From contig OY843592.1 in NCBI GenBank assembly GCA_963692865.2, positions 1,632,001-1,696,000 of the forward strand: 64,000 nt of DNA, written 5' to 3'. Below are positions 1 through 14,637 of the stretch, in pieces. The translations under genes were made by a program, and so were the position numbers. The notes beneath the pieces are model-generated. The model saw only the letters and a program-made list of their open reading frames with translations, searched no databases and had not been told where the DNA came from. This DNA is from a bacterium (lineage in GTDB: Bacteria; UBA8248). How positions within the stretch are numbered: the first letter of the stretch is position 1; every line of letters starts with the position of its first letter.

Positions 1-1231
1 CATCGGCACCGAGATGCTGCTCGGCGACCTCATCGACACCAACAGCGCCTTCATCGCGGACCAGCTCAAGTCGGTCGGCGTGAACATGTATTTCAAGACC
101 ACCGTCGGCGACAATCTCGACCGAATCGCGGGCGTCATCAAACAGGCGCACGACCGCTCCCAGGTGGTCATCACCACGGGCGGCCTCGGCCCCACGGTGG
201 ACGATCTGACGCGGGAGGCATGCGCCAAGGTGATGGGCGTCGAGCTGGAGTTCCGGCAGGACCTGTATGACTACATCAGCGCCTATTTCAGCCGACGCGG
301 CTTCCACATGAGCGAGAACAACAGGAAGCAGGCCTTCATCCCCCAAGGGGCCACGCCCATCGAGAACCCGCGCGGCACGGCGCCGTGCTTCATGTGCGAA
401 GACGAGCGGGGGGTCATCATCGTGAGCCCGGGCGTGCCGCACGAGATGCGCTACATCATCACCCGGTGCGCGGTGCCCATCCTGCAGGAGAAATTCGACC
501 TGGGCGAGGTCATCCGCACGAAGGTCTTGAAGACGTGCGGCCTCGGCGAATCGCGGGTGGACGAGATGATATCGGACCTCTTCCGCGAGTCCGTCAACCC
601 GAGCATCGGCGTGCTCGCCCACCCCGGCCAGGTGGACGTGCGGATCACCGCGCGCGCGAAAGACATCGAAGAGGCGAACAACATGATAGCGGGCCTGGAG
701 GTCAAGGTGCGCGAGATTCTCGGTTCCGCCGTCTACGCCACCGGGAACGCGACGTTGGAAGAGACGCTGGCGCGCGTGCTGGCCCGGAGCGGCAAGACCA
801 TCTCGATCATCGAGTCGAACACCGGCGGCGCCTTGATCCAGAGGCTGAACGCCTGGCCCGAGCGCGTCCAGTTCTTGAAGCGCGGCGTCGTCGGCCTGCA
901 CGCGGAGGAGCTCGCGCGCATGTTCGGCGTGGATGGAAGTGATGACCCCGAGAACTTCGCCAGGGCGCTCGCGCGGAGGGTGCGTGAAGAATCGGACGCC
1001 GACTTAGGCCTTGCCGTCTTCGGCCCCAATCCGCCCGAGAACATCGAGCCGGAAAACTCCCGCCGCGCGCCCGCGCTGGGCGACACCCACATGGCGCTCG
1101 ACACGGGCGAAGACGTGTTCACCTTCACGGCGAGCTTCGGGGGCAACGAGCAGTTCGTGCAGTCGCGCGCGCCCATCTACGGGATGGAGCTCGTCCGCCG
1201 CGCGGTGCTGGGCTTGGACCCGCTCACGTGA
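1..1231 (+). CDS. cinA: CinA family protein (MoCF/COG1058 domain + degenerate PncC domain), 5'-truncated by the window edge
   Basis: Frame is open from the window start (IGTEMLLGDLIDTNS). Motifs TTGGLGPTVDDLTR, NPRGTAP, PGVPHEM, GLGES and IESNTGG. Confidence 0.9.
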   Translation, partial: IGTEMLLGDLIDTNSAFIADQLKSVGVNMYFKTTVGDNLDRIAGVIKQAHDRSQVVITTGGLGPTVDDLTREACAKVMGVELEFRQDLYDYISAYFSRRGFHMSENNRKQAFIPQGATPIENPRGTAPCFMCEDERGVIIVSPGVPHEMRYIITRCAVPILQEKFDLGEVIRTKVLKTCGLGESRVDEMISDLFRESVNPSIGVLAHPGQVDVRITARAKDIEEANNMIAGLEVKVREILGSAVYATGNATLEETLARVLARSGKTISIIESNTGGALIQRLNAWPERVQFLKRGVVGLHAEELARMFGVDGSDDPENFARALARRVREESDADLGLAVFGPNPPENIEPENSRRAPALGDTHMALDTGEDVFTFTASFGGNEQFVQSRAPIYGMELVRRAVLGLDPLT

Positions 1232-1253
1232 CGCGGGGGGCGGGTCCAATTTC

Positions 1254-1318
1254 TGAAAAATTGGATAAAATTGTATAAATTCACGGGGTTTTTCGACAAA
1301 TTTCCGTAAATTTTCGAG
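1254..1318. repeat. AT-rich ~10-bp-period dispersed repeat, inverted homologue of 24077-24140
   Basis: Reverse complement gaaatttgtcgaaaaaccccgtgaatttatac closely matches gaaatttatcgaaaaacctcgtgaatttatcc at ~24078. Confidence 0.8.
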
Positions 1319-1351
1319 GGGAAATGCGGGGAATTGCGCGTGTGGGATGCG

Positions 1352-1371
1352 CGCAAATGCGGGCAAATGCG
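1352..1371 (+). repeat. Decamer tandem motif CGCAAATGCGGGCAAATGCG, copy 1
   Basis: Identical 20-mer at 8447-8466; related copies at 3267, 24221 and 28653. Confidence 0.85.
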
Positions 1372-1465
1372 CGCGCAAAGCCGGCGGGATATGTGATCCC
1401 TCCCGAACGATGCGCCTCCCGGTCCTCTCCTCGATGCAGGCGTTCACCAGCCGGCTCCCTTTCGC

Positions 1466-3139
1466 CTAGGCCCGCCCGTAACGGCGGCGGCGCCTGTTGA
1501 TGCCCTCCAGCTTGCGCGAGAGCTTCTCGAGCGTGCGGTCGTCGCTCAGGTTCCCTTCGATGTGGATATGGTAGACGTGCGAGCCGCTTCCGCCCATCTC
1601 TTCCCGTATCGCGTCGCGTATGATGGGCCGCACGCCGCGCTGGAAGAAGTCGATGGATTGGGGGTGGTTCACGTTCATGATGTGCTCGGGCCCCGCCTCG
1701 CCCACGAGCCTGAGCGCCGAGCGCTTGACGAAGCGCCCCGCCGCGTCGCCCTCGAAGACGGGGAGCGCTTTCAAATAGGCGTCGTAAAGCTCCGCGCCGA
1801 AATACCGCCGCACGCCTTTCTGGGGCGAGATGCCCGCCTTGCCGGCCGCCCGCTGGATGAGCTGAAAGGTCAGGCCCGCCTTTTCCATCAATGGAGGATC
1901 CACGCTCATCCGGCCTTCGTAGACCGCCTTGGGAAACGAGAGAAGCCGCGCTTCTTCCGCCACGCCGGTCTTGCGGAATTTATCCAGCGCGATGTACAGC
2001 CCGGCCGCCTGCGCGAGATTCGCTATTCCCATGGTGAAGGGCGTGGATCTTTTTCTGAAGCCCTTGAAGCCGAGGAAGGAGAGCACCTGCTTGATGGCCC
2101 CGCCCTTGTTGAACAGGACGTCGGTGAGCAGAAAAGCGCCCGCAGCCGGCCCGAAGGCGGCGAGCCCCGTGGCGCCCGCGAGCGCGGGGAGGGCACCCGC
2201 GACGTTGATGGCCAGGTTCGCCCCCGTCTTCAGGGTTTTCGGGCCGCTCAGGAAGTCCAGCGCCGAAAAAGCGACCCGCAAGGTCGCCGCCGCTTTCGTC
2301 GCCGCAATCCGCGCGGCCAGAGCGGCGCTCGCCTTTTCACCCGCGGCGGTGGCGATTGCCGTGCCGCCCAGGCGATTCGCCGCCTCGAGCTCGGAGACGG
2401 ACTGGAAAAGACGCATGAGTCCGGCTTCGCCGCCGATTTTCGCCAGCGGCACCACGAGTTCCGGCCCCGCCTCGCCGATCAGGCCCAGGGTGGGCTTTTT
2501 CACCAGGCCGCCCTTGGAGAAGCCGAACACATTGAGCAGGCCCTTGCCCACATCACCCAGCAGGTTCAGCCCCAAATCCTGGAGCGCGCCCACCGCGGGT
2601 TTGATGAATTGCGTGCTCGCCATCTCGGCGGCCGCGTTGCGCACCATGTCGATGGCGTGGTTTTTGAGGTCGCTGAACAGATCCTTGGCGCTTGCGATTT
2701 CGCCGGTGAGGACGCCCGAGAAGAACCGGGTGAGCGTTTGCTCGCTCGCCGAGGCGAAGTCGTTCACTGCCCTTCCGGCGATCCGAAAAGAGGCGGGCAA
2801 GTCCGCGGCTTTCCTTTTGACTTCGCCCAGGCCTCTCGCGAGCGGGCCGGAGCCGAGTCGGGAGCCTGCGCGTTCCGCATTCCTCCACAGGGTGTTCATA
2901 CCCTCGGCGGCGCGCATGGACGAGACGCCGACTCCTTCGAGTCTGTCTGCGGATTGAACGAAGGCGCGGCTCGACTTTTCGAGCGCGCTGCGGGAGCCGA
3001 GGGTTTGCGCCTGGAGTTTTTCCGTGGCGATTCTCGCCCGGCCCGCCGCCTTGGCGAATCGATCGAGCGTCTTGAGGCTGTTCCCGGAGTTCAGGTCTAT
3101 TTTCTTTATCACCGATATCTTGTGGACTTGCTCCGGCAT
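1466..3139 (-). CDS. Phage/GTA-type tail tape-measure-like protein (557 aa)
   Basis: Ala/Gly/Leu-rich helical sequence with a segment like the lambda TMP C-terminus (LTRFFSGVLTGEIASAKDLFSDL). Motif FSKGGLVKKPTLGLIGEAGPELVVPL and a second copy LVGEAGPEH. ATG at 3139 follows GAGGGA. Confidence 0.75.
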   Translation of the reverse strand: MPEQVHKISVIKKIDLNSGNSLKTLDRFAKAAGRARIATEKLQAQTLGSRSALEKSSRAFVQSADRLEGVGVSSMRAAEGMNTLWRNAERAGSRLGSGPLARGLGEVKRKAADLPASFRIAGRAVNDFASASEQTLTRFFSGVLTGEIASAKDLFSDLKNHAIDMVRNAAAEMASTQFIKPAVGALQDLGLNLLGDVGKGLLNVFGFSKGGLVKKPTLGLIGEAGPELVVPLAKIGGEAGLMRLFQSVSELEAANRLGGTAIATAAGEKASAALAARIAATKAAATLRVAFSALDFLSGPKTLKTGANLAINVAGALPALAGATGLAAFGPAAGAFLLTDVLFNKGGAIKQVLSFLGFKGFRKRSTPFTMGIANLAQAAGLYIALDKFRKTGVAEEARLLSFPKAVYEGRMSVDPPLMEKAGLTFQLIQRAAGKAGISPQKGVRRYFGAELYDAYLKALPVFEGDAAGRFVKRSALRLVGEAGPEHIMNVNHPQSIDFFQRGVRPIIRDAIREEMGGSGSHVYHIHIEGNLSDDRTLEKLSRKLEGINRRRRRYGRA

Positions 3140-3266
3140 GGAGTCCCTCACTTATGAACGAGGTGTTGAATGAGATGCGCGAGAGAAGGCGCATCCCCGC
3201 TGCCCGCCGCTTCCATTGGCGGGGAGAGGCCCAGTGTATCGGCGGCGGGAGAAGGCCGGGGTACGG

Positions 3267-3297
3267 CAAATGCGGGCAGTTGCGGGGTTTTGCGGGA
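3267..3297 (+). repeat. Decamer tandem motif, copy 2 (caaatgcggg cagttgcggg gttttgcggg)
   Basis: TGCGGG occurs three times at exact 10-bp spacing. Confidence 0.7.
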
Positions 3298-3336
3298 GGG
3301 GTTCGGCAAAGTGGCGCGCGCCCCCGATTGTCCGCC

Positions 3337-3459
3337 CTAGTCCGCCCAGGGGTTGATGAAGTGCCACAGGTGGTTCGTGATGAGGCGCGGCTCGAAGGCC
3401 GCGACGACGCACAAGACGGCGGCTGCCGAGAAGAGCGCCGCGAGAAGGCGGGGAATCAT
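3337..3459 (-). CDS. 40-aa hydrophobic peptide MIPRLLAALFSAAAVLCVVAAFEPRLITNHLWHFINPWAD (not in ORF track)
   Basis: ATGA overlap with the upstream stop, AAGGAG RBS, single hydrophobic helix. Confidence 0.6.
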   Translation of the reverse strand: MIPRLLAALFSAAAVLCVVAAFEPRLITNHLWHFINPWAD

Positions 3460-3839
3460 GGTTGACGCTCCTTGTTCAGGCGCTCGCCGAGTCTGGCGAG
3501 CGCGATTTCGACCGCGCGCAGGCGGCGCAGGATTTGCGCGAAGGCTTGCGCGTCCTCGCGCGTTTTTTTCACCGAGATCGCTTTCAGCTCACGGAATTCG
3601 AGGTCGGCAATCGTCTTCGCCTCGCGGAGTCGCGTCTCCACTTCCCGGAAGCGGACGCGCGCGCCCGCGTTTTTCTCCAAAAGCCAGGAGTGGCCCCGCT
3701 CGCTCATGTGGGCCGCCAGACGCGCCTCCACGTTCACGATCTGGTTGTAGAGCGGGGTGTAGGCGGCCACCCCGAGGCCGGCGATGCTCAGGATGGACAG
3801 GAAAATCTGGAGTCCTTTGCCGTTTCCCTCCGAAGCCAT
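3456..3839 (-). CDS. 127-aa protein with N-terminal TM helix and coiled coil (holin/XhlA-like position)
   Basis: Starts MASEGNGKGLQIFLSILSIAGLGVAAY; TGATG coupling to the upstream gene; charged heptad C-terminus. Confidence 0.65.
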   Translation of the reverse strand: MASEGNGKGLQIFLSILSIAGLGVAAYTPLYNQIVNVEARLAAHMSERGHSWLLEKNAGARVRFREVETRLREAKTIADLEFRELKAISVKKTREDAQAFAQILRRLRAVEIALARLGERLNKERQP

Positions 3840-4534
3840 CAGCGCACCGCCTCGAAAGAGGCGGCGGCCTTCGCGAGTTTCGCATCCAGAGCCGCCACGC
3901 TCGCGGTGACGCTCGCATCCTGGGTGTCGCGTACGTACTCGTCGTAGATTTTTACGAGGGAGCCGAGCTTGCCGAGGAGCGCCGTTCTCCGGCTCGTCCA
4001 CTCATCCACCACGCTTTGGCCCGTCGCGTAGCGCGCCGGATAGGCGTCTTTTCTGTTTTTGATGAGCGAGAACCCCGGCTTGGCGAGCTTGTTCTCGTCG
4101 GAATCCTGCGCCCAGGCGTCGGCGAGTTTGGCCTTTTCCCCGTATTCGGCCAGTTTGCCGCCCAGAGCGCTCGTCGGCACGCCGACGACGCGCGCCTTGG
4201 CGCCGTTGAGCAGCAGATTGAGTTTCTCTTTCGCCTCGTCGCGGTGGATTTGCGCCACGCCGTCGGGCGCGTGCGCCGCATGAGCGGCGAGAACGGCGTC
4301 TCGCTGCGCACGGGTGCTCGAATCCGCCACGTGAATGACCCAAGTGTCAACCCCGGGGCCGTGGATTTCGGGGCGGGCGGATTCCGTCTCGCCGCGCCCG
4401 GGCCGCCAGTCGCCGTCAGGCGTCATGGCCGGTTTCAGCCGGTGCGCGCTGCCCAGGTAGATATCCGCGAGTCCGGCGGTTTCGAGTTCATCCCGAAAAT
4501 GCGGGCCGACCGCTTTTGTCACTTCGATTTCCAT
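3839..4534 (-). CDS. Hypothetical phage protein, possible tail-fibre assembly/chaperone (231 aa)
   Basis: AGGAGG RBS; follows the fibre-like gene; AQRDAVLAAH segment and helical C-terminus. Confidence 0.55.
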   Translation of the reverse strand: MEIEVTKAVGPHFRDELETAGLADIYLGSAHRLKPAMTPDGDWRPGRGETESARPEIHGPGVDTWVIHVADSSTRAQRDAVLAAHAAHAPDGVAQIHRDEAKEKLNLLLNGAKARVVGVPTSALGGKLAEYGEKAKLADAWAQDSDENKLAKPGFSLIKNRKDAYPARYATGQSVVDEWTSRRTALLGKLGSLVKIYDEYVRDTQDASVTASVAALDAKLAKAAASFEAVR

Positions 4535-4543
4535 GTTTGCCTC

Positions 4544-5485
4544 CTAAATCAAAACGACGCTTTGGAAGAGATAATCGCCGATGTTCAGGATGGTCGAACC
4601 CGCCACGCGAAAGACGAGCGTGGAGTGGACCTCGGCGAGCGCCCCTGTGTATATTCGCGTGTTCGCAATGGCGAAGTTGTCTTTCTCGTCGTTCGAGAGG
4701 CGGATGATTTCGACTTCCGGGTAGGCTTGTCCCGTCCCGTTGTACAACCCGAGATTCATATCCAGACCAACGAAGCCCGCGATGCTCGTCGAATTGACCC
4801 AGCCCTGTCCGCCCGCTTCCTGGCGGATGACGTCATGGCCCGGCCACATCAGGATTTCGTGCGTGGCGACGGAGGCCCATTTGGTGGACAGGGTGGTGGC
4901 GAGCGTTCCCTTGGCCTGGGCGGCGTATTCCGCCTTGTTCCAGAAACTTCTGACGTACACGTCGTTCGCGAGAACGAATTGCGACGAGGCGTCCGTTCTC
5001 GCGACCCCGACGAGGGTGCGGCTCTTGTCGTCCGTTTTGTGCGCCAGCCCCGTGGCGGCGTCGAACGCCCAGCTTCCCGTCCCGTCGAATTCGAGCTTGA
5101 GCGAGCCCCCGTCATCGTAGACGAAGACCGCATAGGAGCGGTTCGCCGCAAGGTCCGCGTTCGTTATCGTGATTCCCGCCCAGGGCAAATCCTCGTAGTA
5201 GACGTCTCCCGACGTTTCATCGATGAAGGGCACATGGCGGCCCGCTACGGGATTGACGACGGCGGGATAGTAGGCCGAACCCAGCGTCGGCCTGAACGCC
5301 AGGGTGGTGGCGTTCACGTAGTCGAGTCTGCCCGCGCATTGGATGGGTTGTCCGTTGGCCCTGATTTTTCCGTCCGGGAACAGCGCGGCGAGGGCCAGAC
5401 GGTCGATGACGCGGGCTTTCGTGGGGTGATGGCCGCCGATGGCTTCCTCGGTGTAGCGGGCGGACAGATCGGCTCCGATGGGCAT
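4544..5485 (-). CDS. Phage tail fibre / receptor-binding-like protein (313 aa; start MPIGADL)
   Basis: AAGGAG RBS before ATG 5485; beta-rich; AANRSYAVFVYDDGGSLKLE...KTDDKSRTLVG resembles fibre segments; position after the tip gene. Confidence 0.6.
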   Translation of the reverse strand: MPIGADLSARYTEEAIGGHHPTKARVIDRLALAALFPDGKIRANGQPIQCAGRLDYVNATTLAFRPTLGSAYYPAVVNPVAGRHVPFIDETSGDVYYEDLPWAGITITNADLAANRSYAVFVYDDGGSLKLEFDGTGSWAFDAATGLAHKTDDKSRTLVGVARTDASSQFVLANDVYVRSFWNKAEYAAQAKGTLATTLSTKWASVATHEILMWPGHDVIRQEAGGQGWVNSTSIAGFVGLDMNLGLYNGTGQAYPEVEIIRLSNDEKDNFAIANTRIYTGALAEVHSTLVFRVAGSTILNIGDYLFQSVVLI

Positions 5486-5496
5486 CGTTTTCTCCT

Positions 5497-6708
5497 TCAG
5501 GCGTAGGTGGCGGCGTCGCGCTCGGCGCCCAGGAGCCAGCCGCCTTCGAGTGTTTTTGTCCCGTCCAGAAGAGGGGAGGACGTCAGGAAAAAGCCGGTGT
5601 CTCGAATTTTGAGTTCCATGCCCTGTTCGCCCAGGTCGTAGTTCACCTCGATCACCTCTCCGATTTGATTCAAGAGGGGTTCGAGTTTCTCCGAACGCAT
5701 CCAGAGCACGCTGAACGCCACGTAGTCGTCCGGTTCGACTTCGAGCGCTCTCAGGGAGCCGTCCTCGATGGTGATCATGCGGGTCGGCTCGTGATAGCGC
5801 GCCACGATGCGCGATTGAACCGTGGCGGCCACGCTCTCGCGCCGGACCCATTTGAGCCTGAGCGGGCTTTGAAGGGGTCTTCTGACGCCATAGAGCCTTT
5901 GGGAGGACGTGTTTTGAGTGGCGCTCCCATCGTCGTGTTTGATGTAGCGCGCGCCCAGATAATCCCTGGCATAGAGCGCCGGAGCCTGATTGATGATGGT
6001 GTCGCGCGCCACCTCCGCCTCGATGCGCGACTGGCCGAAGCGGGGCAAGACCTTTCGGGGTGAAACGGCGGAAGATTCGCCTCCGGCGATGTGGATTTTC
6101 AGGCGGCCGAACGGGTCGATTTCGTATCGCCCGAGGAAATCGCCCAGAAGCGCGGTGAGGACGTCGGCGGGCGCATGGTCGTCCAGAATGATCCCGCCCG
6201 CCCGGTAGCCGAGCGCATTCGCGCCGGCCGCCGCGCGCGCGAGGGCCTGCATGTCGATATCCTGCTCGCTGAACCCCCAGACGCTCGTCATGAGGTACTG
6301 AACGACCTCGGCGGGATTTTCGATGAGCGCGCCCGCCGCGCTCTTCCTGCCCTTGCATACGGCGGTCACGCGCCCCTTCGGCGGGGTGGTGAAAGCGGCG
6401 GTGGCGATGACGCCCCTGCCTTGATGGTTCCGTGCGAGTTCGAGCGTGTAGCCCTCCGGCTCGATGCGGCCGCTGTCGTCGAACAGGGTGACGCCGCCCG
6501 CGATCTCGTGCGCGGCCACGCAGTAGACGCCGCCGTCCGCGGCGTCGATTTTCGGCGGCGCGTAGACGCCTGTTTTCTCGCGCGGAGGGGTGGTCAGGTC
6601 CCCATAGATGATGGGGAGGCTCTGGTCTTCGAATTCAGGGGCGGCGTACCTGGAAGCGCGCCCTATCTGAAACGAATCCGACAGCCGGTCCGTCGTCGGG
6701 TCGGCCAT
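5497..6708 (-). CDS. Phage tail tip/baseplate hub-like protein (403 aa)
   Basis: LPIIYG motif (cf. PIVYG of tail-tip proteins); hub-like C-terminus (LEVEPDDYVAF...IGEVIEV); terminal LDGTKTLEGGWLLG. Confidence 0.6.
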   Translation of the reverse strand: MADPTTDRLSDSFQIGRASRYAAPEFEDQSLPIIYGDLTTPPREKTGVYAPPKIDAADGGVYCVAAHEIAGGVTLFDDSGRIEPEGYTLELARNHQGRGVIATAAFTTPPKGRVTAVCKGRKSAAGALIENPAEVVQYLMTSVWGFSEQDIDMQALARAAAGANALGYRAGGIILDDHAPADVLTALLGDFLGRYEIDPFGRLKIHIAGGESSAVSPRKVLPRFGQSRIEAEVARDTIINQAPALYARDYLGARYIKHDDGSATQNTSSQRLYGVRRPLQSPLRLKWVRRESVAATVQSRIVARYHEPTRMITIEDGSLRALEVEPDDYVAFSVLWMRSEKLEPLLNQIGEVIEVNYDLGEQGMELKIRDTGFFLTSSPLLDGTKTLEGGWLLGAERDAATYA

Positions 6709-7242
6709 TCAGTTTCCCTCGCATTCAATCGTGACCGAGTCGATGCGCTCGATGATCCGGCGGATGGTGAAACTCCCGACAGAGAGAACGTCGGATATGT
6801 TTTGTCCCGAAAACCCGACGCGCACGTCGACCCTCCCGCCGATGAGCGGTTCCGTCGAGAGGATGCGGCTCATGCGCGGGTGGCCGTCCAGGTCGGGGGC
6901 GTTGTTGACGGCCATCGTGAGGCCGGAGAGTTCCTTTTCCCTGAATGCCTCGAGAACGGAGATGCCCTGAAACGCGCCCAGCGAGAAGCGGCCGCCGTCT
7001 TCTATCCAGTCATGGACGCCGAGGAGCACCTCCGCTCCCTCTCCGAGGAGGAAGGAGCCGTCGAGGACCCGGGAGCCGTCGAGGAAATGGATTCTTCCGC
7101 CTTGTCCGATCAGGGAACCGGGAACCTGCTTTCCGCAGAACACGCGCATTCCCCCGGCGGTGGAGAGGTGATAGAGGATGAAAGCCGTTTTCGCCTCGTG
7201 TCCGGCGATGTCGGCGACGGCCTGGTCCGTGGCGCGTTTCAT
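6709..7242 (-). CDS. Phage tail-associated protein (177 aa)
   Basis: ATGA-coupled to the upstream gene and abuts the downstream gene; LDGSRVLDGSFLLG motif; beta-rich C-terminus. Confidence 0.55.
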   Translation of the reverse strand: MKRATDQAVADIAGHEAKTAFILYHLSTAGGMRVFCGKQVPGSLIGQGGRIHFLDGSRVLDGSFLLGEGAEVLLGVHDWIEDGGRFSLGAFQGISVLEAFREKELSGLTMAVNNAPDLDGHPRMSRILSTEPLIGGRVDVRVGFSGQNISDVLSVGSFTIRRIIERIDSVTIECEGN

Positions 7243-8318
7243 GCGAGTCTTTCCCTGAGCTCAAGCTCGAAGGAGAAATCATCCGGTCCCGTCTGGCGAG
7301 GCGAAAAGCCGCCCGCGAAATGGGCGAGAATGACCGAATCGGGGTCGTCCACGTCCAGATGAACGAAGAACGGCTTGGCCCGTCCTGCTTCGACGTCCTG
7401 CACCGTCCGGTACATGGTGAGAAATTGCTCGCGCTGTTCGTTCGATATGCGCTCATAGGGGAGGGTGGCCGCGCGGCCGCGATTCAGGAGCACCGGACGC
7501 TCCGCCATGTTTTCCGTGCGCCCCGCCTCCTCGAAGGATTCCTCCCCCACCACGCTTCCGAACCAGAAATGATCGTCGGGTTCAAAAAAGCCGCCCAGGT
7601 AGATTTCCGAGACTTCCAGATGCGCGTCATGCCCGGCGGGGCCGCCTTCGGCCACAAGACGCCAGTGGCGATACGAGCGCGGCGCGGCGGCGAGGTAGTG
7701 GATGAGGATGGCGCTGCGCCAGGTGAGCCTTTCATCGAGCGCGGGCGCGCGCCAGTCCGCGGATGCGTTCGCCTGAATCCTGAGCCTCGCGCCGCGCGGG
7801 AAATTGTGGAGATGGGCGATGAATACGTCGGGAGAGACCCGCGCGCCGAAATCGAGGGCGAGCGCCCAGGGATCTCCCGGCGGAGAAGCGCTTCTCATCC
7901 GCGTGGCGGGGTCGAGATCGTAAATTCTCTTTGGCGAGTGAAAGCGATTCGCCGTCGCCTGCCAATGATCTCCCAAAGCGAAAGCGGGTGAGTGCGGTCC
8001 ATTCACGAAACGGACCTTCACGCCTGAATCGAGGGCGACGTCCCTCAGTGCGGTGGGGATGTTCGAGGCTTCCCAGGCGCCTGCGGGAGTGGAGGTTTTG
8101 CGCCACTTGAAACGGGCGCTTCCGACGTCGCCCGGGGCGTCGATTTCCACGTAATAGACTTGCCCGTCGTCTCCGTCGTAGGCGCCGGAGAATATCATCG
8201 AGCCGCCCGCGCCCGCGACGCGGGGCACGCCCGCGCCGACATATCCCGTTTTGACGGAAGTGGCGGTGATGACCGTCTCGTCATCGATGAAGTTTCGATA
8301 CATGAAGCGATGTCCCAT
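7239..8318 (-). CDS. Distal-tail (Dit)-like protein with inserted discoidin/carbohydrate-binding-like module (359 aa)
   Basis: Starts MGHRFMYRNFID after GGGAG; HNF...SYRHWRL...EVSEIYLG galactose-binding-like pattern; ends FSFELELRE. Confidence 0.55.
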   Translation of the reverse strand: MGHRFMYRNFIDDETVITATSVKTGYVGAGVPRVAGAGGSMIFSGAYDGDDGQVYYVEIDAPGDVGSARFKWRKTSTPAGAWEASNIPTALRDVALDSGVKVRFVNGPHSPAFALGDHWQATANRFHSPKRIYDLDPATRMRSASPPGDPWALALDFGARVSPDVFIAHLHNFPRGARLRIQANASADWRAPALDERLTWRSAILIHYLAAAPRSYRHWRLVAEGGPAGHDAHLEVSEIYLGGFFEPDDHFWFGSVVGEESFEEAGRTENMAERPVLLNRGRAATLPYERISNEQREQFLTMYRTVQDVEAGRAKPFFVHLDVDDPDSVILAHFAGGFSPRQTGPDDFSFELELRERLA

Positions 8319-8446
8319 TCCGATCTCCCGGGCGGGGAGTTCCACGTCGGGAAAACCCCTGGCTCCCGCCTTGTTTCGGCATCACTCCGGCGCAGGAGGG
8401 CGCCGGGGTCACCGAATATACGGAAATCGGGGGGGAGCGTTCGCCT

Positions 8447-8466
8447 CGCAAATGCGGGCAAATGCG
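8447..8466 (+). repeat. Decamer tandem motif, copy 3
   Basis: Identical to 1352-1371 over 20 bp. Confidence 0.85.
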
Positions 8467-8475
8467 TGGCAGAAA

Positions 8476-8841
8476 GGGGTTGTTGAAAAAGTCCTGATGA
8501 ACGGAGTGTTTTACGCGACCGGGGAGGAACGGTTTTTGTAGGTCAGACATATATGTCTGACATATCATGCGGCCCGCCTTGTGGAGGCGAAAATCAGGGC
8601 CGCATGATATGCGTGGGACAACCCCGAGGAGGGGTTGTCACCTACAAACAAATTGTCTCTCTCCGGCTTTTTCAACAGCCCCGAGAAAGGAGCGTTTGTA
8701 TCGAAGGGCTTGCCCGAGTCTGTCGAGGGGAGCGCTCCCCTTCTTGGCCGGCAATCGCTCCCGCATTGGTCGCGATTGACCTTCGATACGCGGCTTCGCC
8801 GCTAATCAGGATGAGGCGGAGAGGGCGTTTTCAACAACCCC
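8476..8841. mobile_element. Non-autonomous MITE-like mosaic 1 (one left TIR, two right TIRs, REP cargo)
   Basis: L ggggttgttgaaaaag 8476-8491; R ctttttcaacagcccc 8667-8682 and ttttcaacaacccc 8828-8841. Inverted GTAG-REP pair 8538-8561/8616-8645 surrounds a 15-bp stem 8561-8575/8597-8611. TCGAAGG-type repeat at ~8698-8816. Confidence 0.75.
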
Positions 8842-8866
8842 GTATGGGGGCGCCGGATATGGAAAT

Positions 8867-8894
8867 TTGAAATATTCAGCGAATCTGCTACAAT
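8867..8894 (+). promoter_or_regulatory. Sigma70-type promoter for the M23 peptidase
   Basis: TTGAAA-16 bp-TACAAT with extended TG. Confidence 0.55.
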
Positions 8895-8943
8895 CATAGT
8901 TCAACGGAAGAATGAAGTTTTCTGTTGTACCTGCCGGTTTTAT

Positions 8944-10440
8944 ATGAAGTCCGCCCGATTATCGAAAGGACTTTTGATGCGCAGGAGGTGGGCGCGTCTC
9001 ATCACGCAATCTGGCTCCATACGAAAACCAGGCAGTCGTTCTGCGAGGCTCTGGGCAGTTGGCGTATTGTTGGTTCTGGGCTTCGGCGCGTTGTTGCTCA
9101 GCCGTCCGATAACACCCCCTCCTCCCGAATCGTCCGAAAAGAGCCCCCCGCGTCCGGATGCGCGTGCAGCCGAAAAAGCGCTTGAAGATGAGACGCCGCG
9201 GGAAATCGCCAAAGCGCCCCGGAATCAGGCGCGCGATAGGCCCGAAGAAAATGCTTTGAAGAAAGCCTCTCGGGATCAGCCGGTCAAGAGTCCTGCGAAA
9301 GAAGAAAAACTCACCACCGAAGCAGGCAGATTCTCCAAAGCGGACACCGTCATCGGCGTTTTGATGGCGCATGACGTGCGCCGTTCGGAGATTCAGAAAG
9401 TCCTGGACAGCGTTCGTGAAAAGCGTATTTTTTCGCGCATTCGGGCGGGCCGTCGATATGAAGTGAGAAAAAAAGACGGCGAATTCCGTGAATTCGTTCT
9501 TCAACTGGACAATAAAAGCCGCCTCAGAATCTCGCGAACGCCGAACGGGACGATGAGGGCCTCGAAAGAGGGCATCCCCTATTCGATCAATATCGTTCGC
9601 ATCCAATCCCGCATCAGCAGTTCATTGCATCAAGCCGTCGCCGATGGCGGCGGCTCTCCCGTACTGGCGAACAGGCTGGGCGATATTTTCGCATACGTCA
9701 TTGATTTTCATAAGGATTTGCAAAGAGGTGACCAGGTGGAAGTCCTGGTTGAGCGAAAGCATTTTCGGGGTGAATTCGCCGGCTACGGGAGGATTCTGGC
9801 GGCGGAATTCATGGTGAGGGGCAGGCGGCACACCGCGGTGTATTTCCGGCACGCAGGCGGTAAGTATTACAACTTCGAGGGCGAATCCCTGAGGCGGGCC
9901 TTTTTGCGGTCTCCGCTGCGTTATACGCGAATCAGTTCGCGTTTCTCCAAGAGGCGTTTCCACCCCCTGCTCAAGCGCTATCGTCCCCACTTCGGCATCG
10001 ACTACGCCGCGCCCCGTGGTACGCCCGTCCATGCGGTCGCCGATGGGGTCGTCGCCTGGGTGGGCCGCAAGAGCCAGGCCGGCAAGACGATTAAACTACG
10101 CCATGGCGGTGGTTATCGGACCTCCTACCTCCACCTGTATCGATATGCGCGCGGCATCCGCAAGGGCGGGCGGGTCTTCCAGGGACAGGTAATCGGCTAC
10201 GTGGGTTCCACGGGTTTGTCCACGGGACCTCATCTGGATTACCGGCTGAGCCGCTACGGGCGGTATCTGGATCCCCTGAAAGCGAAGCTCCCCAAGGGCA
10301 TGCCGCTCCCCCGCTCCCTGCGCTCGAAGTTCGGGAAGATTCTGGACGAACGCCGGAGAATGTTTGACAACCTGCCTTTGTTGAAGGACGCTCAGGCTTC
10401 CGCCACGCCCGTGGATCGGTTGTTCGGCGCGGGTGGATAG
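8944..10440 (+). CDS. M23 family peptidoglycan DD-endopeptidase (MepM/Csd3-like)
   Basis: N-terminal TM; HFGIDY (HxxxD), YLHL and STGPHLDY (HxH) motifs. Confidence 0.9.
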   Translation: MKSARLSKGLLMRRRWARLITQSGSIRKPGSRSARLWAVGVLLVLGFGALLLSRPITPPPPESSEKSPPRPDARAAEKALEDETPREIAKAPRNQARDRPEENALKKASRDQPVKSPAKEEKLTTEAGRFSKADTVIGVLMAHDVRRSEIQKVLDSVREKRIFSRIRAGRRYEVRKKDGEFREFVLQLDNKSRLRISRTPNGTMRASKEGIPYSINIVRIQSRISSSLHQAVADGGGSPVLANRLGDIFAYVIDFHKDLQRGDQVEVLVERKHFRGEFAGYGRILAAEFMVRGRRHTAVYFRHAGGKYYNFEGESLRRAFLRSPLRYTRISSRFSKRRFHPLLKRYRPHFGIDYAAPRGTPVHAVADGVVAWVGRKSQAGKTIKLRHGGGYRTSYLHLYRYARGIRKGGRVFQGQVIGYVGSTGLSTGPHLDYRLSRYGRYLDPLKAKLPKGMPLPRSLRSKFGKILDERRRMFDNLPLLKDAQASATPVDRLFGAGG

Positions 10441-10485
10441 AAAATCATTTCTTTGAACTGAAAGCCGAAGGGGGGAGAAGCGCCC

Positions 10486-10995
10486 ATGTTGATTCCCTTC
10501 GAGGGAATGCTGCCCAAAGTCCATGAAACCGCCTGGCTGGCGGAGACCGCCGTCGTCATCGGCGACGTGGAGATCGGCGAGCACAGCAGCGTTTGGTACA
10601 ACTGCGTCCTGCGCGGAGACCATATGCCCATCCGCGTGGGAAAACGCACGAACATACAAGACGGCTCCATTCTGCACATCGAGAGCGGGAAGTACGACTG
10701 CGTGCTGGGCGACGACATTACCGTGGGCCACATGGCCATCGTGCACGGGTGCCATGTGGGAGACGGCGCCGTCATCGCGATGGGCGCCATCGTGTTGAAC
10801 AACGCGAAGGTGGGAGCGGGCGCCGTCGTCGGAGCGGGCGCCGTCGTGTCCGAGAATAAAGTGATCGATCCCGGAACCCTCTGGCTGGGCGCGCCTGCGA
10901 GATATGTTCGCGACCTCAAAGAAGAGGAGATAGAGCGCTTCAAGAACGCGGCCGTCTCCTACATGAACAACAAAGAGCGTTTCAGAAATTCCTGA
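10486..10995 (+). CDS. Gamma carbonic anhydrase family protein (YrdA-like)
   Basis: Hexapeptide repeats; LRGD, TNIQDGSILH, TVGHMAIVHGC. Confidence 0.92.
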   Translation: MLIPFEGMLPKVHETAWLAETAVVIGDVEIGEHSSVWYNCVLRGDHMPIRVGKRTNIQDGSILHIESGKYDCVLGDDITVGHMAIVHGCHVGDGAVIAMGAIVLNNAKVGAGAVVGAGAVVSENKVIDPGTLWLGAPARYVRDLKEEEIERFKNAAVSYMNNKERFRNS

Positions 10996-11019
10996 CCACG
11001 CCGGAAATCCTCTATTTTC

Positions 11020-11970
11020 ATGTCTGAACAACCCCGCGCCGACGCCTCGGCCCCGCTCGCCGCGGTGGTGGACTTGGGCACGAACGCGGCCCGCCTGGCG
11101 CTCGCCACGCTCGATGATGCGGGCAGGCTGGAATCGCGGGGCCGCTGGCGCGAACTGATTCGCCTGGGCGAGGGGGTCCGCGAAACGGGTCTGCTCTCGG
11201 AGAACGCCATGGAGAGGGGACTCGCCTGCCTTGCCCGGTTTGCGCAAATCATTCGGGAGCATCGCGTCAACCTCGTCGACGCCCTGGCGACCAGCGCGCT
11301 GCGTGAGGCGCAAAATGCGGATGTGTTTATCGAGCGCGCCTTGCGGCTGGGGGTCGCGATGCGCGTTATTCCCGCCGAGGAGGAAGCGCGTCTGGCGCTG
11401 GCGGGCGTTTTCGCCGGCGAGGAGCGCAGACCCGAGCGAGCGTTGGTGTTCGACGTCGGGGGAGGAAGCCTCGAGATAATTCTCTCCGGGAGTGGCGGGG
11501 TTCGAGAGATGGCGAGCCTTCCCGCCGGCGTGGTGTATTTGACGGAGCGTTACCTGAAAACGATGCCCACGCCGGACGAGCAGGTGCAGGCTTGTTCGCA
11601 TGCCGTGGATGCGATGTTGGCGGATGTCGATTTCGCCGAGGAGGAACCGGCGGAAACCCCCTTTGTCGGCTGCGGGGGCGTGGTGGCGCTGGCATGGTTT
11701 TTGACCGAAGGCGCGCCGCCGGGCGGGCGCGTGGATGGACTCTCGCTGCCGGGTTCTTTTTTCGAGGAATGGGTCGGCCGGTTCGCCGGTCTGACTTACG
11801 GGCAAAGGAGAGAGCTTCGCGGTTTCGAGTCCGGGCGGGAGGACGTGGCGCTCGCCGGGCTCATCGTCGTGCGCGCGCTGTTGCGGTGGGGGCGAAAGCG
11901 GGAGTTCAGCGTATCAACCGGCGGCGTTCGCGAGGGAAGGCTGCTGGAGCTGCTGCGACGGGGCGCATAG
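11020..11970 (+). CDS. ppx: Ppx/GppA exopolyphosphatase (short form)
   Basis: VDLGTNAARL, ATSALREA, EEEARL, DVGGGS, GVREG. Confidence 0.85.
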   Translation: MSEQPRADASAPLAAVVDLGTNAARLALATLDDAGRLESRGRWRELIRLGEGVRETGLLSENAMERGLACLARFAQIIREHRVNLVDALATSALREAQNADVFIERALRLGVAMRVIPAEEEARLALAGVFAGEERRPERALVFDVGGGSLEIILSGSGGVREMASLPAGVVYLTERYLKTMPTPDEQVQACSHAVDAMLADVDFAEEEPAETPFVGCGGVVALAWFLTEGAPPGGRVDGLSLPGSFFEEWVGRFAGLTYGQRRELRGFESGREDVALAGLIVVRALLRWGRKREFSVSTGGVREGRLLELLRRGA

Positions 11971-11973
11971 ACG

Positions 11974-12518
11974 GGGGTTGTTGGAAAAGACCACAGAAGG
12001 AGCGCACTGAATTTCACTCCCCCCTTGAGGGGGAGTCGAAGAGGCCGAGCGGTTTGTGCGAAGGCCGATTCGGTGGGGGGTAAAACGTGTTTGATCGCCA
12101 TTCTGAATTCTACCCCCCACCGGCTCGACTTCGGGCTTCGCCCTCGTCTTGCCGTCTGGCTTTCCCCTCGGGAAGCCAGACCCTCAAGGGGGGAGTGAAA
12201 TCAAAAGCGTGTGCGCAACTCAAAATTGCTTCCCAGGGGTTTTTCAGCAGCCCCGACAAGGGGAGGGTTAGTTTCCTGCGGGTCAAGGTGGGGTAGGGGC
12301 GGTTCGCGAACCGCCCCTACGGTTCGTCCCGATACGCGAGGTTTCCATAGGGTCAGACACATATGTCTGACCCCCCGTGGCCGCCGGTCGGTCATATTCA
12401 TCCCGATATAGGACAGGCACGGGGACCCCGGACAATCCTTTTGGGTTGTCCGGCTACGGTGAACATTTCGATGATCGGGATTCTTTCCCTCCTCGGGGAG
12501 AATTTTTTCAACAGCCCC
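11974..12518. mobile_element. MITE-like mosaic 2 (one left TIR, two right TIRs)
   Basis: L ggggttgttggaaaag 11974-11989; R 12240-12254 and 12504-12518. Perfect 21-bp IR 12011-12031/12181-12201; perfect 28-bp palindrome gtaggggcggttcgcgaaccgcccctac 12293-12320; further REPs at 12347-12373 and 12428-12457. Confidence 0.75.
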
Positions 12519-13324: not shown

Positions 13325-13504
13325 GTGGGACTTCCCAAACGTCGGCACTCGCAGACGCGAGGCCGCAAAAGAAGAACACACTATAAGGCAGCGAAACCAT
13401 CTATGGCGGTTTGCTCGAACTGCAATAATCCGGTGCTGCCCCACCGGGTGTGCAGCGTCTGCGGGTATTACAAGGGCCAGAAAGTTCTGGAAGTGAAGGG
13501 ATAA
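13325..13504 (+). CDS. rpmF: 50S ribosomal protein L32, zinc-ribbon form (missed by ORF track)
   Basis: GTG start; MGLPKRRHSQTRGRKRRTHYKAAKPSMAVCSNCNNPVLPHRVCSVCGYYKGQKVLEVKG. Confidence 0.96.
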   Translation: MGLPKRRHSQTRGRKRRTHYKAAKPSMAVCSNCNNPVLPHRVCSVCGYYKGQKVLEVKG

Positions 13505-13521
13505 TACCACCGCTGGAAGAG

Positions 13522-14637
13522 ATGATGAAAATAGCGATAGACGCCATGGGGGGAGACAACGCGCCTTCGGCAATCATCGAAGGGGCGTTGGACGCTCACC
13601 GGGAAGAGGGTATCGAATCCATCCTGGTGGGCGCGCCGGAGCGAATCGAGGCGGAACTCGACCGTCTTGGAGCCTCTAAGGACGTCTTTGAGATTCGCGC
13701 GGCGAGCCAGGTCATCGATATGGGCGAGTCGCCCACGAAGTCGGTGAAGTCGAAGCCCGATTCATCCATGCGCGTCGCTCTCCAGTTGGTCAAGGACGGA
13801 GAAGCGCAGGGTGTATTCAGCGCGGGCGACACCGGAGGCGCCTTCGCCGCGGGTCTGGCCGTCTTGCAGCGCATGCAGGGAGTTCAGCGGCCCGCCATCG
13901 CCGCCCTGATCCCCACCCTCAAAGGATTTTCCGTCATGCTGGACGTGGGGGCGAATCTGACCCCCCGGGCGCAGCACCTGTTTCAATTCGGGGTCATGGG
14001 TTCCGTATATACCCAGGAAGTGTTCAAGAAGCCCGCGCCCACGGTGGGTTTGTTGAACGTAGGGGGCGAAGATTCCAAAGGAACCGACGTGCTCAAGGCG
14101 GTCCATGAGATTTTCGTGAAAAGCGATTTGAATTTTGTGGGCAACGTGGAGGGGAGCACGATTTTTCAGGGCGGCACGGACGTGATCGTGTGCGACGGGT
14201 TCGCGGGCAACGTGGCTTTGAAGGTGAGCGAGAGCCTCAGTGAAATGTTGACGACGCTGCTCAGGGAGGAAATCGTCGGTTCGATGCGCAACAAGATTGG
14301 ATACATGTTCTTGCAAAACGGACTGAAATCCATGCGCCAGAGAACCGATTATTCCGAATATGGAGCGGCGCCGTTGCTGGGTTTGGGTGGAATTTGTACA
14401 ATCGGGCATGGCCGAAGCAACGCGAAGGCCGTGAAAAACGCCATCCGGACGACGGCGAATATCGTCAAGGTCGATCTCAATACCAAGATAGAAAAAGAGA
14501 TCGACAAGCATACTTCCATACAGCGCAGCGGGGATGTGGGGTGGCGTTTGTGGAACCAGATACGAACGGGCATTTTCTACGAGAAGGTAACAGGGGACGA
14601 AAAAAAGAGCGGCGATGAAGAAAATCAGCCCTCTTGA
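13522..14637 (+). CDS. plsX: Phosphate acyltransferase PlsX
   Basis: KIAIDAMGGDNAP, LDVGAN, VCDGFAGNVALK, IGHGRS. Confidence 0.95.
   Translation: MMKIAIDAMGGDNAPSAIIEGALDAHREEGIESILVGAPERIEAELDRLGASKDVFEIRAASQVIDMGESPTKSVKSKPDSSMRVALQLVKDGEAQGVFSAGDTGGAFAAGLAVLQRMQGVQRPAIAALIPTLKGFSVMLDVGANLTPRAQHLFQFGVMGSVYTQEVFKKPAPTVGLLNVGGEDSKGTDVLKAVHEIFVKSDLNFVGNVEGSTIFQGGTDVIVCDGFAGNVALKVSESLSEMLTTLLREEIVGSMRNKIGYMFLQNGLKSMRQRTDYSEYGAAPLLGLGGICTIGHGRSNAKAVKNAIRTTANIVKVDLNTKIEKEIDKHTSIQRSGDVGWRLWNQIRTGIFYEKVTGDEKKSGDEENQPS

Follow-up and report, generated by a model that had tools for sequence, protein, structure and literature searches.

What does a row of phage tail-tip genes do in a bacterial chromosome when no head, tube or integrase gene stands beside it? 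This question is raised by an eight-gene module, g1 to g8, in a 64,000-nucleotide stretch of a Nitrospinota chromosome (positions 1,632,001 to 1,696,000 of the forward strand of contig OY843592.1, assembly GCA_963692865.2), which is referred to here as the window. The first-pass annotation of the window had described the module as an orphan tail tip and as one locus of a split, host-maintained particle, either a gene transfer agent (GTA) or a tailocin. We propose that the module is one of three loci that together would encode a siphovirus-derived, GTA-like particle, chromosomally fixed and vertically inherited in a Nitrospinota family. We regard this reading as probable, and are far more confident that the three loci constitute a complete particle gene set under selection. 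The gene identities, their dispersal in the chromosome, their conservation, selection and joint loss, and a shared promoter pattern are established below.

The module consists of eight intact, co-oriented open reading frames (ORFs) on the minus strand at window positions 1466-8318 (ORF listing). The junctions from g1 to g7 are, in order, a 4-nt overlap, 0 nt, an 11-nt gap, a 9-nt gap, a 1-nt overlap and a 4-nt overlap, and 185 nt separate g7 from g8. The G+C content at third codon positions is 0.73-0.83 in the six module ORFs listed by the coding filter, and third codon positions take the substitutions when the module genes are aligned with their relatives. ORF, junction and flank checks therefore bear out the earlier description of a tightly packed, undamaged module between cinA and an M23 peptidase gene. 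The M23 peptidase itself was considered as a part of the system and rejected, given that it is kept in two genomes that have no module (G009 and G010) and is not beside the module in three of six relatives. Ordinary annotation says almost nothing about the module genes: no Pfam or NCBIfam family scores above its cut-off for any of g1-g8; Pfam yields no significant match for any of them, and PHROGs yields weak tape-measure matches for g8 and phrog_34951 for g6.

The tail nature of the module is most evident from g3. By its modelled fold, g3 is a siphophage-type baseplate hub protein of the kind represented by lambda gpJ, T5 pb3 and the hub of RcGTA (N-terminal part). The AlphaFold2 model obtained from a 69-sequence alignment has a predicted local distance difference test score (pLDDT) of 92.2 and a predicted template modelling score of 0.87. 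A model from 17 close sequences was poor (pLDDT 41), and 69 diverse sequences from a library-wide profile search sufficed. Foldseek matched the model in the PDB to the T5 tail tip (E 1.8e-11), Chi (3.4e-10), JBD30 (2.5e-9) and RcGTA (1.9e-7) with a probability of 1.00. VIA-align returned Z scores of 17.6 for Chi, 17.1 for JBD30 and Sf11, 17.0 for R4C, 16.6 for RcGTA, 16.5 for T5 and 15.1 for lambda. Across nine siphophage and GTA hubs, including that of T1, Z ranged from 17.6 to 13.6 over 295-340 residues (root-mean-square deviation 4.0-4.4), above the unrelated rows of the comparison, and the shared fold spans most of the protein. The hub or tip label that g3 had received from motifs is thus upheld by AlphaFold2, Foldseek and VIA-align.

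The g3 family is distinctive in sequence and in distribution. A profile search of 1.84 billion representatives recovered 352 relatives at E<=0.001, many of them fused to NHL, BNR, LamG, F5/8-C or deacetylase domains, and a Pfam model covers the g3-like part in none of the 50 relatives that were scanned. Full-length relatives (42 proteins, 23 loci) come only from metagenome-assembled genomes (MAGs) labelled Nitrospinae, Nitrospinota, Nitrospinaceae or Candidatus Tectomicrobia, and g3 has zero matches among 50,697 phage records. Sequence profile searches of the PDB with the g1, g3 and g8 alignments returned chance or coiled-coil matches only. A language-model atlas led from g1 and g3 to clusters described as 'viral, unknown function', one g3 cluster having 20% PF13550; these leads were not counted as evidence. 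In sister lineages g3 carries a C-terminal LamG extension, and a LamG (PF13385) stretch of about 220 residues is inserted within g1, the g1 of genome G026 reaching 904 aa (g1/g3 LamG examples: P0068-P0072, L065:7410-9218, P0031-P0035). This LamG variation is a host-range-type change in otherwise conserved tail-tip proteins.

The genes around g3 were assigned from sequence matches and gene order. The protein g2 aligns with the N-terminal ~177 residues of proteins that contain the g3 domain (38% identity to P0081, E 1e-36; 31% to P0089, E 4e-10). Because g2 matches the N-terminus of proteins that continue into the g3 domain, the hub is split here into g2 and g3, g2 being its detached N-terminal part. 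Its ratio of nonsynonymous to synonymous substitution rates (dN/dS) is 0.13-0.29. The protein g8 is the tail tape measure protein. Members of its family match the PHROG tape-measure families phrog_1535 (12 of 14, best E 2.1e-12), phrog_23574 (10 of 14) and phrog_167 (8 of 14), and g8 itself matches the NCBIfam RcGTA_tape model (NF058675) at E 3.3e-8 and 33.5 bits, below the cut-off of 220. Length variation marks the N-terminal ~190 residues of g8, where insertions and deletions span tens of residues (roughly 20-70). In the sister lineage L065, the orthologue of g8 is a 572-aa protein encoded between the chaperones and g1, and the g8 C-terminus shares 44.6% identity with it (E 8e-17). The g8 family is restricted to the lineage, and Pfam PF10145 does not match g8. 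With a family match, a corresponding gene position in L065 and a variable-length part all present, the earlier tape-measure label for g8 holds.

What is the role of g1? We place it, from gene order, as a putative tail-tip protein at the position that follows the tape measure gene, the distal-tail 'Dit' position, and gene position is what supports the earlier Dit-like label. The g1 gene lies directly 3' of the tape measure gene in L065 and in a Mu-like prophage (L019). In G032, a g1 homologue precedes a tape-measure-like gene, which weighs against this placement, and position alone is therefore not conclusive. Homologues of g1 are found only in MAGs labelled Nitrospinota or Tectomicrobia (38 proteins); distant ones match phrog_8610 (unknown function), and profile searches with g1 gave zero Pfam families and zero PDB sequence matches.

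Where are the genes for the head and the tube? No capsid, portal, terminase, tube or integrase gene was seen in window positions 1-12000, the remainder of the window not having been annotated gene by gene, which agrees with the earlier observation. The route to the missing genes was a relative of the same class and another family, G027, in which homologues of g1-g2-g3 (33-37% identity) stand at the end of a classical morphogenesis row inside a Mu-like prophage. That row runs from capsid (PF25209) through neck, tube (PF18906) and tape measure (PF10145) genes to g1-g2-g3. The prophage (L022, L019; G027:C6:96000-134400) also encodes transposase A/B, Gam, methyltransferases, an endolysin, a terminase and a portal beside the full siphophage row; a stop or frameshift disrupts its g3 homologue, which is followed by three WD40 beta-propeller genes. 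A tblastn search of the prophage proteins against the window's own genome revealed two further loci, locus 2 with capsid, neck, tube and tail chaperone genes and locus 3 with terminase and portal genes. Searches of the same genome with Pfam PF05065, PF04860 and PF03354 had found nothing, because the head genes belong to other families. The genome search for lone head or tube clusters that the first-pass annotation had suggested thus succeeded at two places, and its term 'orphan' describes the module within the window and fails for the genome as a whole.

Loci 2 and 3 lie ~12 kb apart, and both are 2.2 Mb from the window module (locus 1). Host genes flank all three loci. The portal-capsid interval of ~12 kb is filled with host genes for two luciferase-like monooxygenases, a dehydrogenase, a dCMP deaminase and a DisA-type cyclase, and the outer neighbours are an ammonium transporter (Amt) gene and cupin/F420 genes. 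The adjacent luciferase-like monooxygenase genes (L021:3308-5394) are paralogues, ~60% identical to each other, in a block conserved across the genus. The G+C content is 0.61-0.66 in the window region and 0.61-0.64 in the two other loci. No transposase, integrase, replication or repressor gene adjoins the three loci. They contain structural and packaging genes only, a statement about the loci in a genome that was not annotated gene by gene.

The large terminase is encoded by two genes, terL-N and terL-C, on the minus strand at L021:11572-13274 (C1:3887572-3889274). The two ORFs meet in a GTGA/ATGA stop-start overlap in five of five genomes, the phase of third-codon substitutions switches exactly at this overlap, and both halves are under purifying selection (dN/dS 0.18-0.31). 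ATPase and nuclease are therefore not joined on one polypeptide as in terminases of the lambda gpA type.

The three loci are conserved together. The main comparison set comprised 22 other genomes of the genus, of which 20 carry g3, 20 the capsid gene and 20 a full-length portal gene, in each case single-copy and stop-free; the portal count rises to 21 if a remnant of 26-27 aa in G010 is included. All eight module genes occur in six of six fetched same-genus loci, where a gamma-carbonic-anhydrase/Ppx flank is present in all six and the CinA flank in four; beyond g8, cinA has no match in G002 and a partial match (52% identity) in G011. Loci 2 and 3 are syntenic in each of the four genomes examined in full. 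Of 15 copies of locus 2, 13 have all eight genes intact, and one of the others is on a contig that ends early. Within the family, 32 of 41 other genomes and eight of the nine genera have the capsid gene, at 62-91% identity; at the level of the class it is present in 37 of 51 genomes, and outside the family its identity is <=41%.

Selection has acted on the set as it acts on host genes. In pairwise comparisons, the window genes have a dN/dS of 0.11-0.48, loci 2 and 3 one of 0.11-0.44 and the host flanks one of 0.04-0.70 at similar synonymous divergence (dS), and dS within the genus reaches 0.5-1.0 with all 19 genes intact. Capsid protein distances follow those of the host protein CofE (r 0.96; 13 genomes, 78 pairs; none of 5000 permutations reached this value), and g3 distances follow those of the unlinked capsid (r 0.90) and of CofE (r 0.87) in nine genomes. 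Synteny, dN/dS and the CofE correlations accordingly describe a set at several loci that is inherited vertically under purifying selection. The idea of a split, host-maintained particle would have been weakened by absence from close relatives, by a dN/dS near 1, by near-identity to a complete phage or by folds foreign to tail proteins. What we found instead was the module in 20 of the 22 genomes, a dN/dS far from neutrality, no near-identical complete phage, the best cultured relative of the head genes being 33-40% identical, and a tail-hub fold in g3; together with the two further loci, these results support the idea.

The three loci are also lost together. Genomes G009 and G010 have none of them, and the host flanks are joined in their place: cinA with the M23 gene, cupin with DisA, and a host gene beside Amt. 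The CinA proteins of G009 and G010 are 83% and 93% identical to that of the window, so the two losses were probably independent. Decayed, frameshifted copies, with g3 or portal among the affected genes, occur in other lineages (G023, G027 and L069).

A shared upstream pattern ties the loci together as well. Upstream of g1, g8, capsid and terL-N lies a tandem repeat (CGCATTT, 3 nt, CGCATTTGCG, or nearly so), followed after 26 nt by a TAnAnT hexamer. Searched as a composite of tandem repeat, 24-28 nt spacer and TAnAnT, the pattern occurs twice in the window and in none of 100 shuffles. In the 4.15 Mb genome it occurs five times, and four of these sites precede terL-N, capsid, g1 and g8. The composite is kept in relatives while the spacers have diverged: before g1 in six of six, before capsid in four of four (two with TAGTTT) and before terL-N in all three relatives that have the repeat, G019 having no match within four mismatches. 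Before g8 it was recovered in two of six relatives (L011 and L012) at the mismatch limit used. We read the composite as a putative activator-dependent promoter common to four transcription units. A sigma-70 promoter scan upstream of g1 found nothing.

The repeat on its own was rejected as a system-specific operator. The 20-nt tandem repeat is present in 31-85 copies genome-wide depending on stringency (56 at <=2 mismatches, 85 at <=3), and it is the composite with the hexamer that is near-specific. Repeat copies are often arranged as inverted pairs with 300-450 nt between them, which resembles the ends of a small mobile repeat. Four copies lie in the window, and the two between cinA and the end of g8 have no -10-like hexamer. 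Upstream of g1 (window ~8560-8650) and of terL-N (L021 ~13480-13600) there is, in addition, a common longer hairpin-rich element with a palindrome around GTCAGACATATATGTCTGAC and an inverted repeat CATATCATGCGGCCC...GGGCCGCATGATATG, which is probably a repeat element inserted at both sites.

How did one particle gene set come to lie at three places? Two sister lineages, L065 and L067, whose g3 is 53-55% identical, have a contiguous row of connector, neck, tube and chaperone genes, a gene at the tape-measure position, g1, g2 and g3. In L065, the gene at the tape-measure position encodes the 572-aa tape measure, and a g4-like gene follows g3. In L067, the corresponding ORF (485 aa) has no g8 or tape-measure match, g2 is seemingly frameshifted, and the end of the row lies close to cupin and cofE, which in the window's genus flank locus 2. 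Since the sister row is contiguous and ends at the cupin/cofE flank of locus 2, the window module is a translocated piece of that row: in the window's genus, the tail-tip block has been transferred to the CinA site. L069 already shows the terminase-portal block set apart by the same host genes, and the portal/capsid split is therefore old. The gene order has changed from an ancestral tape measure gene followed by g1 to the present g1 to g7 followed by the tape measure gene. The block was probably excised as a circle and reopened between the tape measure gene and g1, which would explain why the tape measure gene is last and would make g1 the gene that originally followed it. A further layout, unlike the others, is seen in L014 (G026:C4:142500-162400), where a gene for a 457-aa protein with a weak portal match precedes a g1-g2-g3-g4-like row and an SLT lytic transglycosylase gene comes after it; neither a tube nor a tape-measure gene was recognised there.

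The remaining module genes would add surface and membrane functions. For these genes, the first-pass labels of a fibre (g4), a chaperone-like protein (g5), a transmembrane coiled coil (g6) and a 40-aa peptide (g7) serve as descriptions. The product of g4 is a probable fibre or receptor-binding protein. The gene lies directly after the hub gene; of its product, the N-terminal 219-247 residues alone are kept in the sister lineages L065 and L066 (39-43% identity), the remainder being variable, and its residues 5-30 are similar to the N-terminal end of a G032 protein with matches to tail-fibre PHROGs. Neither g4 nor g5 has a significant match of its own in Pfam, PHROGs or NCBIfam; g5 is present in all six same-genus loci at 65-84% identity, with a dN/dS of 0.24-0.44. 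The protein g6 has one N-terminal membrane helix and then a long helical part, shows the lowest dN/dS of the module (0.11-0.20), has phrog_34951 (unknown function; E 2.5e-4) as its sole family match, and is possibly a release or lysis protein. The g7 product is a single-pass membrane peptide whose start overlaps the end of g6 by 4 nt and which is present in all six same-genus loci. Its Cys17 is found in 15 of 15 full-length distinct copies, and its C-terminal 18 residues are nearly invariant. A spanin pair of g6 and g7 was considered and is kept at low weight, since g7 has no canonical lipobox and its hydrophobic helix runs through the invariant Cys. In G001 (L011:12795-14582), three tandem paralogous genes for proteins of 184-189 aa with lipoprotein-like signals lie between g7 and g8, where the window has none; these paralogues have weak phrog_1848 (unknown function) matches only. 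Extra DNA between g7 and g8 is also present in L012, L013 and L018. The positions and matches of all features are collected in Table 1.

Table 1. Features of the window module, its flanks and the two other loci; positions are those of the window unless a contig is named.
Feature	Position	Strand	Size	Remarks
g1	7239-8318	-	359 aa	first gene of the module
g2	6709-7242	-	177 aa	
g3	5497-6708	-	403 aa	
g4	4544-5485	-	313 aa	
g5	3839-4534	-	231 aa	
g6	3456-3839	-	127 aa	
g7	3337-3459	-	40 aa	
g8	1466-3151	-	561 aa	database start is the ATG at 3139, four codons in, giving 557 aa
Composite promoter-like element before g1	8415-8466	-		tandem CGCATTT, 26 nt spacer, TATATT
Composite promoter-like element before g8	3233-3284	-		degenerate first repeat; TACACT hexamer
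Tandem repeat copies between cinA and the g8 end	1319-1338, 1352-1371	-		
Other tandem repeat copies in the window	3265-3284, 8447-8466	-		
CinA / competence-damage-inducible protein-like gene	14-1231	+		match to solved structures, E 1.7e-50
M23 endopeptidase gene	8944-10440	+		match E 2.8e-46
Locus 2	C1:3868196-3874314			capsid to chaperone genes, eight genes
Locus 2, protease/capsid fusion			693 aa	PF25209 E 1.2e-46; NCBIfam fusion models below cut-off
Locus 2, three connector or neck genes			113 aa; 300 aa; HK97 gp10-like	the HK97 gp10-like product is a neck protein
Locus 2, further conserved protein			184 aa	
Locus 2, tube protein			379 aa from true start	PF18906 E 3.5e-13
Locus 2, two overlapping small ORFs				tail chaperone G/GT-like arrangement
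Locus 3	C1:3886202-3889274			terL-N, terL-C, portal
Locus 3, terL-N (ATPase ORF)		-	352 aa	PF05876 59.1 bits (cut-off 25.6); phrog_675 positions 26-343
Locus 3, terL-C (nuclease ORF)		-	215 aa	phrog_675 positions 360-548, E 1.3e-11
Locus 3, portal				phrog_10963 E 3.7e-46

How would the dispersed genes act as one system? In the mechanism that we propose, a common activator-dependent promoter would switch on the four transcription units. The portal and the protease-capsid fusion would form a prohead, which the two-piece terminase would fill with DNA. A tail initiator would assemble from g8 as tape measure, g1 as distal tail protein and g2 plus g3 as hub; the tube protein of locus 2 would polymerise on it, g4 and g5 would decorate the tip, and the membrane proteins g6 and g7 may help release. 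With genes up to 2.2 Mb apart, no head could carry the whole gene set, so the cargo would be mostly host DNA, and a system with such cargo would act as a gene transfer agent. Packaging of host DNA without preference for the system's own genes is in this sense predicted from the architecture, by the 2.2 Mb distance. More tentatively, and with some hesitation over the joint claim, the system can be seen as a family-wide, independently domesticated GTA of Nitrospinota that is unrelated in sequence to the described GTAs, has become progressively dispersed, has no small terminase subunit and uses one tandem-repeat activator site. This joint account includes a siphovirus ancestor that would have been akin to the Mu-like prophages of neighbouring families.

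Several observations weigh against a functional GTA-like system. It is known from genomes alone, and the genomes compared are mostly MAGs, in which absences are subject to incomplete assembly. Records of sequencing runs include no RNA run for this stretch, which weighs neither way. The distance correlations describe co-divergence and are not proof, kin not being independent samples. The system is dispensable, as its loss from two of the 22 genus genomes illustrates, and one genus with genomes of 2.0-2.2 Mb has the capsid gene in none of four. In G013, the tube gene is interrupted by ~2.3 kb (L039:5110-7479) after residue 250, the other seven locus-2 genes being intact, and the tube gene may have been inactivated recently. 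The terminase consists of two ORFs, and its activity in this form is putative. No small terminase gene lies next to terL-N, where the upstream 900 bp are unconserved and have no codon periodicity; the search covered this upstream region, and a gene elsewhere in the genome is possible. No holin or endolysin could be tied to the system. The fifth composite site in the genome (C1:1157007-1157057, minus strand) precedes a ribosome-binding site and a 45-codon ORF and lies within a repeat with ~35 copies per genome that is unmatched in G009, G010 and G015. The repeat half of the composite, being present genome-wide, could be a mobile repeat and not a regulator site.

Which other explanations could account for the three loci? 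The rival to be taken most seriously, although we think it rather unlikely, accepts the particle and assigns it a purpose other than general transfer, either as a helper that packages a small mobile element or as a headed killing or delivery particle directed at competitors or a eukaryotic host. A complete, selected and conserved head-tail set fits such a particle equally well, and the receptor-side proteins of relatives carry LamG and other carbohydrate-binding insertions. Moreover, the terminase belongs to the lambda gpA type (PF05876), and terminases of this type are often site-specific (cos) and not headful; with no small terminase found, the choice of DNA substrate is open. The special cargo that such a particle needs is, however, not in evidence: no cargo element, cos site or toxin gene was seen beside the three loci. 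Furthermore, all studied chromosomally fixed multi-locus head-tail sets are GTAs according to PMC11841831.

The other explanations deny the particle or its head. That the loci are inert remnants of one old defective prophage, scattered and not yet decayed, is improbable. The genes are indeed phage-derived and fragmented, decayed copies exist in L069, G023 and G027, and some genomes have none; nevertheless, decay is not what the genus displays, with 19 genes intact at the dS given above and a host-like dN/dS, conservation in eight of the nine family genera, translational coupling preserved down to the ATGA/GTGA terminase junction in five of five genomes, promoter elements kept between diverged spacers, and three unlinked loci lost together. 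Still less probable is a headless F-type tailocin built from the window module and the tube genes, with the head and packaging genes belonging to something else. F-type tailocins are siphovirus tails without heads, and the window does contain tail-tip genes only. However, the 20 of 22 genomes with the tail genes are also those with capsid, portal and terminase, the other two having lost both, and the composite promoter pattern stands before head and tail units alike. Purifying selection acts on the head-to-tail connector genes, and sister genera have head-to-tail genes in one continuous morphogenesis row. The set is thus not tail-only, and because head and tail genes have been kept and lost as one and have a promoter pattern in common, the tailocin half of the first-pass proposal is abandoned. 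A live temperate or transposable phage that assembly errors have scattered is scarcely credible. Relatives in other families (G027, G032) are complete Mu-like or contiguous prophages, but several single-contig chromosomes repeat the three-locus layout, down to the host genes that separate and flank the loci, the distances between loci are 0.5-2.2 Mb, and the genes of phage transposition, integration, replication and repression do not adjoin the loci. We therefore retain the GTA-like particle as the preferred reading.

How does the proposed GTA-like system compare with described ones? In PMC11841831, GTAs are characterized by remnant-phage-like structural and packaging genes at several loci, by the lack of replication and integration genes, and by vertical inheritance; they are not yet findable by sequence because they resemble remnant phages, are split over loci and have several origins. 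Further traits of GTAs are a small terminase that lacks a specific DNA-binding domain and the delivery of packaged host DNA to recipient cells. The RcGTA type of Rhodobacter capsulatus, Caulobacter and Dinoroseobacter likewise is a chromosomally fixed siphovirus-like set at several loci with vertical inheritance, and its hub chain superposes on the g3 model (Z 16.6, 300 residues). However, none of the 19 proteins reaches the cut-off of an RcGTA NCBIfam model, 18 have no match at all and g8 alone has a weak one. The present system also differs from RcGTA in its protease-capsid fusion, its gpA-type two-gene terminase with no small terminase gene found beside it, its Mu-like prophage relatives and its Nitrospinota host. 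BaGTA (Bartonella), VSH-1 (Brachyspira), Dd1 (Desulfovibrio) and VTA (Methanococcus) are listed in the same review as independent, unrelated domestications, several of them multi-locus (PMC11841831). These four were found by experiment and are set apart here by description, whereas the Nitrospinota system, also in contrast to RcGTA, is known from its genes. In the literature searched, which was seen at abstract level, no GTA is linked in substance to Nitrospinota or Tectomicrobia.

The likeness to phages and tailocins is confined to parts of the system. The g3 fold is common to the lambda gpJ, T5 pb3, Chi and JBD30 hubs (Foldseek E 1.8e-11 to 7.7e-7, Z 17.6-15.1). Compared with gpJ and pb3, g3 is short (403 aa), has no long C-terminal central-fibre part and belongs to a hub split in two genes; sequence identity to the four hubs is 10-14%. 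F-type tailocins (F-pyocins, monocins) are likewise siphovirus tail modules that the host maintains and that include a hub and a tape measure, and the monocin tip is a weaker match to the g3 fold (E 7.2e-5). In contrast to these tailocins, which have no head or packaging genes, the system here keeps capsid, portal and terminase and loses them with the tail genes. The closest cultured phage for the head genes is the Microcystis phage Mae-JY22, with a complete 41-kb genome, a portal 39.8% identical over 96% of the length and a protease-capsid fusion 32.8% identical over 95%. In the phage collection, Mae-JY22 has no match to g3 or terL-C. At such identities, this phage would be a distant relative and not the source.

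What does the finding mean for the family and for its annotation? Only a handful of independent GTA lineages are known, and the phylum consists mostly of uncultured marine bacteria, with some records labelled as sponge metagenomes. The evolutionary evidence is unusually complete for a case known from genomes alone: related genomes display a contiguous ancestor-like state, two-locus and three-locus states, decayed copies and clean triple losses. The module also holds a lesson for annotation, namely that the whole genome should be searched for missing parts before a 'headless' tail module is labelled a tailocin or a remnant. If functional, the system would widen the range of GTAs, would provide a natural split large terminase and would offer a promoter signature with which the rest of its regulon may be found.

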